DNA of 64,000 nt. It comes from Candidatus Omnitrophota bacterium (lineage in GTDB: Bacteria; Omnitrophota; Gorgyraeia; 2-01-FULL-45-10). Each line of letters starts with the position of its first letter. Position 1 is the stretch's first letter. Location: NCBI GenBank assembly GCA_041648975.1, contig JBAZNZ010000009.1, positions 1,033-65,032 of the forward strand, given 5' to 3'. Under the pieces are notes generated by a model that saw nothing but the letters and a program-made list of their open reading frames with translations, was not told the DNA's origin and made no database searches. A program made the translations under genes and the position numbers. This document shows positions 12,318 through 53,165 of this stretch, one piece after another.

Positions 12318-12407
12318 ATGCCTTGCGGACGTAAGCGTAAAAGAGCGAAGATGGCGAAGCATAAAAGAAAAAAAAGGATGAGAAGAGACCGCCATAAAAA
12401 GAAATAA
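12318..12407 (+). CDS. bS22-like ribosomal small protein (29 aa, extremely basic)
   Basis: AGGAGGTG Shine-Dalgarno sequence 7 nt upstream of the ATG. The peptide MPCGRKRKRAKMAKHKRKKRMRRDRHKKK resembles the mycobacterial/Bacteroidetes bS22 sequence ([23 protein letters not shown]...) as recalled from memory. Absent from the ORF track because it is under 60 aa. Confidence 0.5.
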   Translation: MPCGRKRKRAKMAKHKRKKRMRRDRHKKK

Positions 12408-12472
12408 GTCGTAAGCTGTAAGTTGTAAGTTTTAAGTTAAAAGCTTACAACTTACGACTTACAGCTTATAAC
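12408..12472. repeat. word-built hairpin (GTAAG/CTTAC words)
   Basis: GTCGTAAGCTGTAAGTTGTAAGTTTTAAGTT | AAGCTTACAACTTACGACTTACAGCTTA; directly follows the bS22-like stop codon. Confidence 0.65.
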
Positions 12473-12498
12473 TAAACCTCTGTTTAAGAGTCACTATA

Positions 12499-14034
12499 GT
12501 GCGCGCGACAAAATATATATTTTCCCTGGCAGTTCTCATTACACTTCTAATATCCACGGTCGATTTAGATGCTGTAATAGACATTTCCGCCAAAAAAAAT
12601 CCGCTCTCGTTATGGGAAACGGTCGTCCAGAAGGTCCGCCCGACGAATGCGTTTTCCAGGTCGCTAGCCCATTTCACGATGGGCGTTATCAACGATAACG
12701 AGTCCAAGCCCGAAGACGCTATCCGGGAATACAAAGAGGCGATAGAGTCCGAGCCCGGCGTAAGCTACCTGCATACGAGGCTCGCCATAGATTATATACT
12801 TCTTAAGAAAGAAGACGACGCCGTCGAAGAATTGAAGACGGCCAAATCGCTTGACCCCTCCGACGTGAGGCCGAAGTTCCTCCTGGCGTTGACATATACG
12901 TCGCTGGGTATGCTTGAAGAGGCGCGCAGAGAGTACGAAGAGATAGCGCGGCTCGACCCGAACTCCATATGGGCGCTAAGTTCTTTGGCGGACATATTTG
13001 TATTACAGAAGAAGATGGCTGAGGCTGCCGCTGTATACGAGAAGCTTCTCGAGGATAAGAAAGACTCCGCCGTCCTGTATTTCAACCTTGCGGTCATCTA
13101 CTCGAGGATGGAGAGGACCGACGAGGCCATAGAGATGCTTAAAGAGGCGGTCTCGGTAGACGGCGAATACGTCGAGGCGTATATAGGGCTCGGCATATTA
13201 TATGAGATGAAAAAAGACCTCCCCGGCGCCATCCGTAATTTCGAAACGGCTCTTGAGAAAGATCCTCTGAATACGAAGCTATATCACCACATCGGCATCT
13301 TATACTATAAAGATAAGAAGGTAGACAGGGCGATAAAGAAATACGAGCTCTTGCTGAAGAATAATCCCAACGATCTCGACGCTTACATAGAGCTTTCGAA
13401 TATATATCTGGGCGAAAAGAGGCCGCAGGACGCGATAAAGGCGCTCGACGCCGCGTTGGAGAGGGGTTCGAAGGAAGCGAGCCTGTATATAGCCCTGGGA
13501 TTTACGTATACTGTCCTGGAGAGATACGATGAGGCGCTGAAGTTCTATAACACGGCGCTTGAGATAGATAGAGATGACCCGAAAGTCCATTTTTATCTCG
13601 GAGTCCTTTATGAAAAGAGAGGCGACAAAGAATTGGCCGCCGGAGAACTCAGGGAAGCGATAAGATTAGACCCGGATTTCGCGGACGCCTGTAATTACCT
13701 TGGGTACATGCTGGTAGAAAAGGGGGGAGCCTTGGACGAGGCCATCCTCCTTATAAAGAAGGCGCTGGAGACAGATCCCGATAATGCCGCTTATATAGAT
13801 TCTCTCGGATGGGCGTATTTTAAGAATGGCATGACGGATGAGGCGCTTACGGAATTGGAGAAGGCGTTAAAGCTGGAACCGGGCGATCCCGAAATAAGGG
13901 ACCATCTCGGTGAGGCGTACCTTAAGAAAGGTATGAAGGGTAGGGCAAGGGAAGAGTGGAAGAAGGCGCTCGAACTTAAACCCAGCAAGGATATGCAGGA
14001 TAAAATTAGAGAGAAGCTGAGAAAGGCAAGGTAG
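12499..14034 (+). CDS. secreted TPR-repeat protein
   Basis: N-terminal signal-like hydrophobic segment followed by about ten tetratricopeptide repeats. Confidence 0.7.
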   Translation: MRATKYIFSLAVLITLLISTVDLDAVIDISAKKNPLSLWETVVQKVRPTNAFSRSLAHFTMGVINDNESKPEDAIREYKEAIESEPGVSYLHTRLAIDYILLKKEDDAVEELKTAKSLDPSDVRPKFLLALTYTSLGMLEEARREYEEIARLDPNSIWALSSLADIFVLQKKMAEAAAVYEKLLEDKKDSAVLYFNLAVIYSRMERTDEAIEMLKEAVSVDGEYVEAYIGLGILYEMKKDLPGAIRNFETALEKDPLNTKLYHHIGILYYKDKKVDRAIKKYELLLKNNPNDLDAYIELSNIYLGEKRPQDAIKALDAALERGSKEASLYIALGFTYTVLERYDEALKFYNTALEIDRDDPKVHFYLGVLYEKRGDKELAAGELREAIRLDPDFADACNYLGYMLVEKGGALDEAILLIKKALETDPDNAAYIDSLGWAYFKNGMTDEALTELEKALKLEPGDPEIRDHLGEAYLKKGMKGRAREEWKKALELKPSKDMQDKIREKLRKAR

Positions 14035-14140
14035 GTTACGTAATGTTACGTAAAGTTAGTGAATGTTACGTAAGGTTACAAAAGTCTACTAACCTTACGT
14101 AACCTTAATTAACCTTCACTAGCCTTATGTAACCTTTTAA
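14035..14140. repeat. word-built hairpin (TTACGTAA/GGTTAC words)
   Basis: GTTACGTAATGTTACGTAAAGTTAGTGAATGTTACGTAAGGTTAC ... ACCTTACGTAACCTTAATTAACCTTCAC...; lies between the TPR gene and tkt-N. Confidence 0.65.
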
Positions 14141-20974: not shown

Positions 20975-22243
20975 ATGAAAAACATAACAGCGATTATACT
21001 TGCGGCGGGAAGAGGGACGAGGATGAAGTCCGACGTACCTAAGGTCCTTCATAAGATACTGGGGCGTCCTATCATCTCTTATGTGCTTGACGCTGTCGGG
21101 GACGCCGGTATTTCCAAGACGGTGACCGTCGCCGGATTCGGTATCGACAGACTTAAAGAGTTGTTAGGGGAAGAGACTAAAGTCGTTATCCAGAGGAAGC
21201 TCCTCGGCAGCGGCGACGCGGTCAAGACGGCAAAGAGGGTCCTTGGGAAACATCCCGGCGATATCCTCGTTATCTGCGGAGATACGCCGCTTATCAAGCC
21301 CCGGACGATAAAGGATATCATCGAAAGGCATAAGGCCGCCGGGGCAAGCGCCACCCTTCTGACGGTCAGGTTAAAAGATCCCGCAGGCTACGGCAGGATA
21401 ATACGGTCGAACGCCGGCAAGATAGTAAAGATCATGGAAGAGGAAGACGCCCATTCTTACGGCGAAGTTGTTAACGAAATTAACGTCGGCACTTATTGTT
21501 TTAAGGCAAAAGACCTTTTTGAAGCGCTATCCGGTATAAGGCCCAATAACAGGAAGAAAGAATTTTTCCTGACCGACGTAATAGAAATTCTGGGTAAAAA
21601 AGGTTTGCCGGTAGAAGCGGTTTCGGCCAAAGACGCGAGCGAGATGATAGGCATAAATACGAGAAAAGACCTGGCTGTTGCTACGGCTACAGTCAAGAGC
21701 AGGATATTGAACGAGCTTATGGACGCAGGCGTTACGATAGAAGACCCGCTATCGACCGTAATATATCCGGGCGCGAAGATCGGCCGCGATACGGTCATTT
21801 ACGCAAATACATATATAGAATCGGATGTGGAGATAGGCGCCTCCTGCCTTATAGGCCCTTTTACGCGGCTAAGAAAAGGCGTGCGTATAGGCAACCGTGT
21901 TGAGGTGGGGAATTTTGTGGAGCTTGTCAGGACAGAAGTGGGCGACGATACAAAGGTAAAACATCATACTTATCTTGGAGATACTAAGTTAGGGAAGTCA
22001 GCCAATATCGGCGCCGGCGTCATTACGGCAAACTACGACGGGAAGAATAAGAATAGGACCATTATAGAAGACGGAGCTTTCATAGGCGTCGGGGCCAGGC
22101 TGATAGCGCCCCTGTCGATCGGCAAAGGCGCAGTCGTCGGAGCAGGGGCAGTCGTGCCTAAGAACCACGATGTCCCGAAAGGCGCGACGGTGTTGGGCGT
22201 GCCGGCGAGGATATTAAAAAAAAGGTTACATAACGTTACGTAA
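20975..22243 (+). CDS. glmU: bifunctional UDP-N-acetylglucosamine pyrophosphorylase / glucosamine-1-phosphate N-acetyltransferase
   Basis: AIILAAGRGTRM nucleotidyltransferase motif followed by a C-terminal left-handed beta-helix hexapeptide-repeat domain. The ATG at 20975 is preferred over the TTG at 20945. Confidence 0.85.
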   Translation: MKNITAIILAAGRGTRMKSDVPKVLHKILGRPIISYVLDAVGDAGISKTVTVAGFGIDRLKELLGEETKVVIQRKLLGSGDAVKTAKRVLGKHPGDILVICGDTPLIKPRTIKDIIERHKAAGASATLLTVRLKDPAGYGRIIRSNAGKIVKIMEEEDAHSYGEVVNEINVGTYCFKAKDLFEALSGIRPNNRKKEFFLTDVIEILGKKGLPVEAVSAKDASEMIGINTRKDLAVATATVKSRILNELMDAGVTIEDPLSTVIYPGAKIGRDTVIYANTYIESDVEIGASCLIGPFTRLRKGVRIGNRVEVGNFVELVRTEVGDDTKVKHHTYLGDTKLGKSANIGAGVITANYDGKNKNRTIIEDGAFIGVGARLIAPLSIGKGAVVGAGAVVPKNHDVPKGATVLGVPARILKKRLHNVT

Positions 22244-22325
22244 GGTTAGCGAAGGTTACGTAACGTTAATAAAACTCAAGCAACCTTACATAACCTTAAT
22301 TAACTTTCACTACCATTACGTAACA
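22214..22325. repeat. word-built hairpin (TTACGTAA words) overlapping the glmU 3' end
   Basis: AAGGTTACATAACGTTACGTAAGGTTAGCGAAGGTTACGTAACGTTAAT ... AACCTTACATAACCTTAATTAAC..CATTACGTAACAT; the glmU stop codon TAA is part of a TTACGTAA word. Confidence 0.65.
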
Positions 22326-30807: not shown

Positions 30808-31836
30808 ATGTCTAAAAAAGTAAAGGAAATAGCGCGGTTCATCGGCGGCGAAGTCGTCGGCGACGGCGAGATTTTGATAAAAGGCATAAACGGCATTAAT
30901 GAGGCGCGCGAAGGGGACCTCTCTTTCCTGCTGAACATTAAATGCGACGGTCTGCTGGAGAAGACGTGCGCCAGCTGCGTAGTGGTGCCGAAGACCATAA
31001 AGAAGAGTTGTCAGAAACCTCTTATCAAGGTCGATGACCCGTCGACCGCTTTCTCTAAGATAATCGATGTCCTGTTCCCGGAAAGGATCCCGCATCCGAA
31101 AGGTGTCCATCCTACGGCGGTGATATCGAAGAGCGCCAGGCTCTCCCGCAACGCCGCTGTGGGGCCGTATGCTGTCATCGAGGACGGCGCCGAGATAGGC
31201 GATAATACCGCGATTTATCCATTCTGCTATGTAGGCAAAAATGCCAAAGTAGGTAAAGACTGTATTATATATCCCAATGTCACCGTCAGGGAAGAGGTGA
31301 TCATCGGGAATAGAGTCATAATACATTCCGGCACGATAGTCGGAAGCGACGGGTTCGGTTACGATGTCCAGCCGGATGGGACCTTTTTTAAGATACCGCA
31401 GGTAGGAACCGTCGTCCTGGAAGATGACGTCGAATTGGGCGCCTGCGTAACGATAGACCGCGCCAGATTTAATAAGACTGTAATAGGTAAGGGGTCCAAG
31501 ATAGACAATCTGGTCCAGATAGCGCACAATGTCATCCTGGGCCCGAATTGCGTTATAGCGGCTCAAACAGGTATATCCGGGAGCACCGAACTTGGCAGGA
31601 ACGTGATATTCGGGGGCCAGGTAGGAGTGGCGGACCATCTTAAGATAGGTGACTTTGTCCGCGCCGGCGCCAAGACCGGCATATCTAAATCTTTTCCCGC
31701 CAACACTACTTTGTTCTGGTATCCGGCAAAACCGGTAGATAAGGCGAGAGATATCATAGCGTCTATCGGGCTCTTGCCCAAACTCTATGAACGCGTCCGC
31801 GCGCTGGAATCCAGGATAAAAGAATTAGAGAAGTGA
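30808..31836 (+). CDS. lpxD: UDP-3-O-(3-hydroxyacyl)glucosamine N-acyltransferase
   Basis: 342-aa ORF with a left-handed beta-helix hexapeptide repeat domain. Confidence 0.85.
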
Positions 31837-32747
31837 TCCCTATTAGACAAAGGACGATAAAAGATCAGGTTGTGGTGGAAGGCGTCGGCCTCCAGACAGG
31901 CAAGCCGATAACATTAAAGCTTAACAGCGCCCCCGCAAATTCAGGCGTAAATTTCATAAGGACCGATCTTCCAAATAAACCCCTTTTAAACATACGATCT
32001 TTAGGCCCAACTATGAACCAGAACATTCTCCCCAAACACTCCGGGGGTTCGGTTCATAGTTGCCATGAACCGAACGAAGTTCTGGTTCATGGCAAGGCCC
32101 CGGAACGCAGGACTACTCTGGGCACAGGCCCACTCCAGATACAGACAACGGAACATTTTCTCGCCGCTCTTTCAGGCCTCGGTATAGATAATATAACCGC
32201 CGAATTGGATAATGTAGAACTGCCCGGCCTGGACGGAAGCGCATTAGGCTTTGTCGAGGCGTTGAAGAAGGCCGGGATGCGGGAGCAGGACGAGCCCCGG
32301 AAGGTATTGAAAGCGGAGAACGCTGTTTGGGTCAGGGGCGATGACAATATATTGGCTGTCTTTCCGAGCGATGAATTCAAGATCTCGTACACGATGTCTT
32401 ACAAGAACCCGTCTCTCGGGACCCATTTTTTTGAGATAGCCGTGAACGAAAAGTCCTTTGAAAAGGAGATAGCGCCGGCAAGGACGTTCTGCCTGAAAGA
32501 AGAGGCCCTCATACTTTTGAAGATGGGGTTGGGCAAGGGAGCCAATTACGATAACACCCTTGTAATAAGTAAAGAGGGCCCGGTGAAGAATAAACTGAGG
32601 TTCGCCGATGAACCTGTCAGGCATAAAGTGCTCGATCTCATAGGAGACCTCTATATACTGGGTATGCCGCTTATCGGTCATGTAGTAGCTGTAAAGAGCG
32701 GCCATAAATTGAATATGGAACTTGTGAAGAAACTTAAAAAGGAGTGA
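31833..32747 (+). CDS. lpxC: UDP-3-O-acyl-N-acetylglucosamine deacetylase carrying an in-frame ~27-aa insertion
   Basis: LpxC blocks are present ([29 protein letters not shown]). About 27 extra residues lie between the TDL and EHFLAAL blocks, encoded by the palindromic DNA at 32011-32092. Confidence 0.85.
32011..32092 (+). repeat. 82-bp double-palindrome inserted in frame within lpxC
   Basis: CTATGAACCAGAAC-[22 nt]-GTTCGGTTCATAG TTG CCATGAACCGAAC-GAA-GTTCTGGTTCATGG: two tandem hairpins with arms swapped. Confidence 0.8.
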
Positions 32748-42865: not shown

Positions 42866-42934
42866 CAGTTGTAAGCTATAAGTTGTAAGTCATAAATTTT
42901 TGTCTTACAACTTAAAACTTACGACTTACAACTA
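42866..42934. repeat. word-built hairpin (GTAAG/CTTAC words)
   Basis: AGTTGTAAGCTATAAGTTGTAAGTCATAAA | TTTTTGTCTTACAACTTAAAACTTACGACTTACAACT; runs right up to the pyrH ATG. Confidence 0.65.
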
Positions 42935-53136: not shown

Positions 53137-53165
53137 TTGCATAGTGAACGATTGTTCACTATAAT
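53137..53165 (+). promoter_or_regulatory. lexA sigma70-type promoter (TTGCAT-17-TATAAT) with an embedded LexA box GAACGATTGTTC (53146-53157)
   Basis: Both hexamers with a 17-bp spacer read directly from the sequence. The GAAC-N4-GTTC (Cheo-box-type) palindrome AGTGAACgattGTTCACT lies in the spacer. Confidence 0.7.

Follow-up and report, generated by a model that had tools for sequence, protein, structure and literature searches.

An in-frame hairpin dimer in the lpxC gene of a Candidatus Omnitrophota bacterium belongs to a dispersed repeat family

Introduction

Palindromic repeats that lie in frame within functional genes were first described in Rickettsia, under the name RPEs. It has also been reported that intragenic REPs, which are frequently dimers, encode 20-30 amino acids in loops of functional and often essential genes (Di Nocera et al. 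2013, PMC3733652). A second described system is that of the Ssn proteins, single-domain GIY-YIG enzymes of about 94 amino acids that cut ssDNA beside their own NTS/SRM hairpins and recognise the hairpin as ssDNA in a strand-specific manner (Chenal et al. 2025, PMC11893778). The ssn genes are flanked by NTS/SRM repeats, which are also scattered through the genome, NTS elements being found only rarely (2%) within genes, and the comparison drawn by the authors of that work is with REP/RAYT (PMC11893778).

The locus considered here is a pair of hairpins inside lpxC in a stretch of 64,000 nucleotides of a Candidatus Omnitrophota genome (assembly GCA_041648975.1, contig JBAZNZ010000009.1), hereafter the window. 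This insert is a further, newly found case of a known type of selfish DNA, REP/RPE, and does not represent a new mechanism. It is considered about 80% probable that it is a head-to-head dimer of that type which inserted in frame, is translated and is tolerated as a loop, its spread being putatively mediated by a nuclease.

Like RPEs and the intragenic GTAG/CGTC REPs, the family to which the insert belongs places frame-preserving hairpins in open reading frames, here as a dimer encoding 27 residues in lpxC and as monomers in recR, metG and an iron alcohol dehydrogenase (Fe-ADH) gene. Unlike them, it has another sequence, is untagged and owes its asymmetry to an internal bulged A, and its hosts are Omnitrophota, Patescibacteria and Planctomycetota, whereas those of the RPEs and GTAG/CGTC REPs are Proteobacteria. 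With REP, BIME and REPIN elements it shares bulged imperfect palindromes, inverted doublets that can pair into a single long hairpin (arms 1:4 and 2:3) and covariation in the stem. It differs from REP/RAYT in that there is no GTAG tag and in that the gene observed in association with it encodes a GIY-YIG protein and not a Y1 HUH transposase. MITEs of the Correia/NEMIS kind are likewise small, non-autonomous repeats that may sit in transcribed regions, but the present element shows neither terminal inverted repeats around a body nor a recognisable target-site duplication.

The hairpin pair in lpxC

LpxC is an essential enzyme of lipid A synthesis and an antibiotic target. In the window its gene is part of an intact lpxD-lpxC-fabZ-lpxI operon, with fabZ and lpxI downstream of lpxC. 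The relevant features, all on the forward strand, are the following:

31833-32747, + strand: lpxC coding sequence, a single uninterrupted open reading frame of 304 codons whose GTG start overlaps the lpxD stop codon
32008-32062, + strand: hairpin unit 1 (bulged-A form), defined by inverted repeat I2 (12/12) and the ssDNA minimum-energy fold
32060-32095, + strand: hairpin unit 2 (bulged-T form), defined by inverted repeat I3 (12/12) and the ssDNA minimum-energy fold
32013-32093, + strand: 27 extra codons (M61-G87), 81 nt, given as codon limits and not as the exact DNA borders of the insertion
32013-32015, + strand: ATG inside unit 1, taken by gene callers as the lpxC start, which leads to a false 244-aa product

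Unit 1, CAACTATGAACC-A-GAAC / 22-nt loop / GTTC-GGTTCATAGTTG, is composed of an arm (32008-32019), the bulged A (32020), GAAC (32021-32024), the 22-nt loop (32025-32046), GTTC (32047-32050) and the second arm (32051-32062). Unit 2, TTGCCATGAACC-GAAC / GAA / GTTC-T-GGTTCATGGCAA, consists of an arm (32060-32071), GAAC (32072-32075), the loop GAA (32076-32078), GTTC (32079-32082), the bulged T (32083) and the second arm (32084-32095).

The first-pass annotation had described this insert as two tandem hairpins of 81-82 nt with 13-bp stems and with arm sequences swapped between the units. Two tandem hairpins are indeed found, abutting with three bases in common, but each stem is made of 12 + 4 bp with a single bulged base, and the extra codons amount to 81 nt and not 82. 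The swap of the arms is borne out: on the opposite strand, unit 1 takes the form of unit 2, so that the two are reverse complements in form and together make up an inverted dimer of a single unit. Covariance model R1 matches unit 1 on the + strand (26.9 bits, E 1.4e-6) and unit 2 on the - strand (53.2 bits, E 1.7e-15). When folded as ssDNA the insert forms the two tandem hairpins (-30.8 kcal/mol, z -9.4), and when folded as RNA it forms a nested structure in which arms 1:4 and 2:3 are paired (-52.5 kcal/mol, z -9.2); in both cases none of 200 shuffles folded as well. No convincing target-site duplication was found at the dimer, the GGCC present on both sides being part of the palindrome.

It had also been suggested that the GAAC and GTTC words of the stems resemble half-sites of LexA (Cheo box). 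This idea does not hold, as the words are spaced by 3 and 22 nt and not by 4, and the site lies inside a coding region. In the window as a whole the sole GAAC-N4-GTTC, at 53146, corresponds to the chance level.

Palindromes can confuse assemblers, and the insert could in principle be an artefact arising from a chimeric or fold-back join. This is very improbable, given that its DNA is base-for-base identical in the JGI contig, the ENA MEGAHIT contig (L001) and the Logan assembly of SRR8542065 (L114, 2477/2477 nt), three assemblies that may share the same reads, and that it is internal to long contigs and exactly in frame. Because the same sequence was recovered in the MEGAHIT and Logan assemblies, the insert is not the product of one assembler.

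Several other palindromes are present in the window. Four long intergenic hairpins (12404-12473, 42867-42933, 14033-14135 and 22222-22297) have arms made of tandem short words and represent two families with two copies each, one of AGTTGTAAG-type and the other of GGTTACGTAA-type words; comparable word-repeat flanks surround hairpins in the CPR loci L054, L081 and L092. A further intergenic palindrome (205-290), composed of GTAACCAGAAA / TTTCTGGTTAC words and located just upstream of an open reading frame starting at 316, has an ACCAGAA/TTCTGGT core in common with the lpxC hairpin and is undetected by model R1.

An otherwise intact LpxC with an extended surface loop

The presence of about 27 additional residues in an otherwise intact LpxC, as previously noted, was corroborated by comparison with relatives. 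In a set formed by the query and its best 120 database relatives, all of the Omnitrophota type, the segment from LLNIRS to ERRTTL measures 34 aa here as against 9-12 aa in 114 of the 121 sequences. The nearest orthologues (280 aa, 72% identity at 99% coverage) are devoid of the insert and have a loop of 11 aa, and none of the 120 best relatives has the 27 residues, on which ground an ancestral loop was rejected; the alignment of orthologues, from whose nearest members the insert is missing, likewise revealed no relative in which the same residues are encoded by non-palindromic DNA. The Pfam LpxC profile (PF03331) matches the product with an E-value of 3.7e-87, the match being split into two stretches, the second of which aligns residues 91-302 with profile positions 57-267. 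The catalytic and zinc-binding residues (the E-H of TxEH, HKxxD and SGH), namely E107, H108, H264, D268 and H291, fall in invariant columns of alignments of 14 and of 120 sequences.

Structural modelling (AlphaFold, AF2, with the 120-sequence alignment) gave a mean pLDDT of 90.1 and a pTM of 0.88, values below 50 being confined to residues 64-88, i.e. the insert. Foldseek aligned the model with P. aeruginosa and E. coli LpxC at TM 0.84-0.85, and superposition on the P. aeruginosa, E. coli and Aquifex enzymes gave TM 0.80-0.85. In the comparison with the P. aeruginosa structure, query residues 54-92 stand opposite chain residues 52-64. The insert is positioned in the loop after strand 51-53, and its end is about 8 residues ahead of the ERRTTLG strand, which we take to be the start of Insert I of solved LpxC structures, so that the extra residues would sit just before Insert I. 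As judged from this model, the fold of LpxC is predicted to be normal and the insert to be a disordered surface loop, which agrees with the surface loop anticipated by the first-pass annotation.

The position of the insert, a few residues ahead of the strand that presumably corresponds to Insert I and lines the active site, together with the fact that two pipelines start the gene at ATG 32013, might be taken to mean that the insertion damaged lpxC, leaving a pseudogene or only a 244-aa product translated from the internal ATG. Such an outcome is quite unlikely. No stop interrupts the frame downstream of the homologous start, and residues 1-56, which contribute strands to the domain I sheet of the model, show the same conservation as the remainder of the protein; moreover, a stop-free insert with a length divisible by three is the expected outcome of selection for function, and the lpxD-lpxC-fabZ-lpxI operon is intact. 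The 244-aa call, represented by a public LpxC entry (P0001) that is 100% identical across 80% of the query, drops 60 conserved N-terminal residues and is an annotation error due to the insert, the Logan gene call being of full length (304 aa). Gene calls on L001 (10001) and L113 (259) also start at the ATG within the repeat.

The same LpxC loop carries unrelated inserts of 12-32 extra residues in three other orthologues, the loop of LpxC P0089 measuring 41 aa, and for this reason it is a permissive site that has been used repeatedly. Two of these inserts, in lpxC genes of other Omnitrophota (L002 6184-6267; L003 6163-6225), likewise form hairpins and are built from dispersed repeats rich in GC (TTCGCCAAGGCTACGG and GCTTCGGCGGACAGGCC words), with 11-17-mers in common with repeats of this kind in many of the loci. 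In L002 gene callers split the neighbouring lpxD (~5300) into two genes at one in-frame TAG, which reflects either an error of sequencing or a nonsense mutation of recent date; another palindrome insertion was rejected as the cause of this split, which is due to the point stop codon itself.

A family of dispersed hairpins

Further copies of the hairpin were not found in the 64-kb window either by word search or with model R1, which was run with filters off and whose next best match scored 9.9 bits (E ~1). The family became apparent, on the other hand, in other genomes. An exact 23-nt pattern comprising two arms, ATGAACCGAAC-N(1-30)-GTTCTGGTTCAT, was found in 31 stretches of public metagenome contigs, as compared to fewer than one expected by chance, and a 21-nt pattern was found in 78 stretches when one genome per species was scanned, where about 8 would be expected, both expectations being our own estimates. 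About 6 of the 78 look like chance matches in unrelated taxa, judged from record titles, and copies are present on two or more contigs in 13 MAGs. The labels of the MAGs to which the 78 stretches belong include:

Omnitrophota: about 20 stretches of 78
Patescibacteria/CPR: about 26 stretches of 78
Planctomycetota: about 11 stretches of 78
'Gammaproteobacteria': 6 stretches of 78
Ratteibacteria: 2 stretches of 78

Each repeat unit is one hairpin, about 33 nt long, with the consensus RCC-N-TGAACC-A-GAAC-(2-30 nt loop)-GTTC-GGTTCA-N'-GGY, i.e. a 14-bp stem with one bulged A. On the strand with the bulged A the loops are mostly GAA, AAA or AGA, and about half of the units have an inverted partner 2-3 nt away, as is the case in lpxC. 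Stem columns 6/31, which are outside the search pattern, show compensatory changes (CG 19, AU 17, GC 3, UG 2); the covariation score of 0.144, versus 0.067 in shuffles, was reached by none of 500 shuffles, and slid registers all scored far lower than the true one.

The lpxC insert therefore belongs to a family of dispersed hairpins, whose core recurs in other genomes at over 100 unrelated sites. It could be argued that the palindrome was made locally, by replication slippage or template switching and without any mobile family, for template switching can perfect quasi-palindromes and there is no second copy in the window. Such an origin is scarcely credible, since the same 21-23-nt core, bulge and dimer layout is found at more than 100 places elsewhere as against fewer than 10 expected (our own estimate), and a local template switch was rejected as contradicted by the core scans of metagenome contigs and genomes.

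Neither a GTAG nor a CGTC end tag was detected in the flank profiles of 130 units. A comparison of the Rfam covariance models with positions 31900-32200 gave no match up to E = 10, and an Rfam scan of 14 hairpin loci returned only tRNA, rRNA and one group I intron, the hairpin itself being unmatched. In the searchable literature, two or more of four hairpin sequence words were not found together in any paper. No match to the hairpin core was obtained in viral contigs, and hence nothing points to phages as vehicles.

Copies inside other genes and the preservation of frame

Single units of the family are also found within the coding regions of other genes, as follows:

RecR (L064): one unit between the Toprim and C-terminal domains, gene intact
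MetRS, metG (L095): one unit, gene intact
Iron alcohol dehydrogenase (L068): one unit within the Fe-ADH domain, gene intact
BNR_2 protein (L096): one unit, gene intact
Membrane protein (L074): one unit, gene intact
Cys-rich protein of about 600 aa: one unit, gene intact, in five genomes (L017, L026, L029, L032, L047)

These units are read in both orientations and in several frames, yielding peptides such as LNQNKFGSG, LNRTCSGSG, PEPEQVRFR and MNRTSEASSGSW. In all nine coding-region monomers the hairpin loop is 2, 11 or 20 nt long (2 mod 3), as opposed to 28 of 88 units elsewhere (Fisher p = 8.7e-5; p ~1e-3 for six independent genes). With a loop of this length class the number of bases in the unit is divisible by three. 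Such a frame filter is to be expected where inserts are translated and only those that keep the frame are retained, and it speaks against removal at the RNA level. These frame statistics suggest that the lpxC insert, too, would be read into mRNA and then into protein, as a disordered loop of 27 residues.

An alternative in which the hairpins are cut from the transcript like introns, so that the protein would be made without the 27 residues, might draw on the strong RNA structure and on the position of some copies directly next to tRNA genes, which are sites of RNA processing. It was nevertheless rejected, and must be regarded as extremely unlikely, because the coding copies are all frame-preserving and stop-free (9/9 versus 32% elsewhere), which would be needless if they were excised, and because no ribozyme or intron family was matched.

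In two loci the start ATG of groEL is supplied by the 3' arm of the hairpin (GGTTCATGG), at L009 601-626 and L077 594-617.

It is also conceivable that the hairpins were co-opted as a cis-regulatory signal for lpxC, acting either as an operator bound by a protein or through mRNA structure (on translation or stability). Model bacteria keep LpxC dosage under tight control, the RNA fold of the insert is very strong (-52.5 kcal/mol, z -9.2), and a hairpin overlaps the groEL start codon in L009 and L077. A regulatory role of this kind is unlikely, however, as the unit is found both ways round within unrelated genes, between genes and next to tRNA genes, while the lpxC site contains no GAAC-N4-GTTC, has no Rfam match and carries an insert that is absent from orthologues.

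GIY-YIG and tRNA genes as neighbours of the hairpins

The surroundings of the family were surveyed at 144 strict hairpin sites in 109 stretches from two collections. A tRNA gene is located within 100 nt of 28 of the 144 sites, sometimes with the hairpin a few bases from the tRNA end, and a gene for an 84-87-aa single-domain GIY-YIG protein (PF01541, 5e-15 to 7e-17, the domain spanning the entire protein) within 100 nt of 38 of them. Seen from the 30 GIY-YIG genes, hairpins occur no more than 200 nt upstream of 21, typically 20-60 nt before the start codon, downstream of 9 and on both sides of 7, some hairpin being present within 200-250 nt in 23. The closest solved structures to the hairpin-linked protein are those of UPF0213 proteins and SLX1, and NCBIfam yielded only weak, sub-threshold matches to a group I intron endonuclease model.

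Hairpin dimer and GIY-YIG gene also recur together as tandem arrays with a period of about 400-490 bp (L007 6282-6792; L076 5595-6323; L055 1074-1954; L101 217-813). In four loci (L025 1569-1868; L027 170-469; L031 65-364; L034 1460-1759) a GIY-YIG open reading frame of 99 aa runs on into a tRNA gene (tail ...LTGSVTVAQQTLDL), and because of this extension the GIY-YIG gene abuts the tRNA with zero spacer. A group I intron (RF00028, 56.8 bits) adjoins a hairpin and a GIY-YIG gene at L010 899-1122.

This arrangement, as seen in related loci, resembles Ssn/NTS in that a gene for a small single-domain GIY-YIG protein, a putative nuclease and candidate member of the Ssn clade (cd10448), lies beside scattered hairpins and in that the loops are of the GAA/AAA type. 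It differs from Ssn/NTS in that the hairpins do not fit the SRM motif and in that the window is devoid of the nuclease gene. The degenerate SRM motif HGTCWY..YYVSBRH..WNVSBRG..RNCYNB, as a regular expression that matches the NTS control, was found in none of 116 units and not in the lpxC insert, and a tblastn search of the 64-kb window for a GIY-YIG gene of the hairpin-linked family gave chance-level matches only. Because the window lacks such a gene, the lpxC copy appears to be a solo, non-autonomous one. The link to a GIY-YIG nuclease is suggested by association in related genomes, an association that does not by itself establish Ssn membership, and hairpins, GIY-YIG genes and tRNA genes may instead lie together because they occupy the same safe havens, or because of homing beside hairpins, with no mobilisation involved.

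Proposed origin of the lpxC insert

It had originally been proposed that a small palindromic element inserted into the essential lpxC gene, kept its reading frame and was tolerated as a loop. This view is supported by orthologues of 72% identity that are without the element, by the occurrence of its core at more than 100 other places and by the normal fold of the model. In the sequence of events favoured here, one hairpin dimer landed in lpxC of the Omnitrophota bacterium and added a stop-free multiple of three bases in a loop of variable length; the rest of the enzyme is unchanged. The insert probably persists since its harm to LpxC is small or nil.

The way in which the repeats spread is a less secure part of this scheme. 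They might be recognised as ssDNA hairpins and then copied or maintained by the small single-domain GIY-YIG nuclease, a step to which we would give even odds. It would parallel the relationship of Ssn with NTS/SRM and of RAYT with REPs, because in related genomes the GIY-YIG gene is located 20-60 nt downstream of the dimers. A broader and more tentative proposal, for which the chances seem somewhat short of even, is that the TGAACC-A-GAAC hairpin and its 85-aa GIY-YIG partner constitute an undescribed, horizontally spreading Ssn-like element of Omnitrophota, Planctomycetota and Patescibacteria, whose nuclease would read the bulged hairpin as ssDNA and whose hairpins would seed beside tRNA genes and, if their length is a multiple of three, in loops of such essential proteins as LpxC, RecR and MetRS.

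Concluding remarks

In-frame hairpin repeats in essential genes, best known from Rickettsia, extend to Omnitrophota and the candidate phyla radiation, where they belong to a repeat family that was not found in Rfam or the searchable literature. Inserts of this kind lead gene callers to shorten real genes, lpxC being an example, and the copies retained in coding regions provide a natural experiment on which hairpin lengths survive within genes. The lpxC case also marks a permissive loop beside the active-site insert of LpxC. The GIY-YIG nuclease and the ssDNA hairpin may form a pair of new specificity that would be relevant to the Ssn toolbox and, if the proposed Ssn-like element is real, it would repeatedly give rise to loop insertions in the proteins of streamlined uncultured bacteria.
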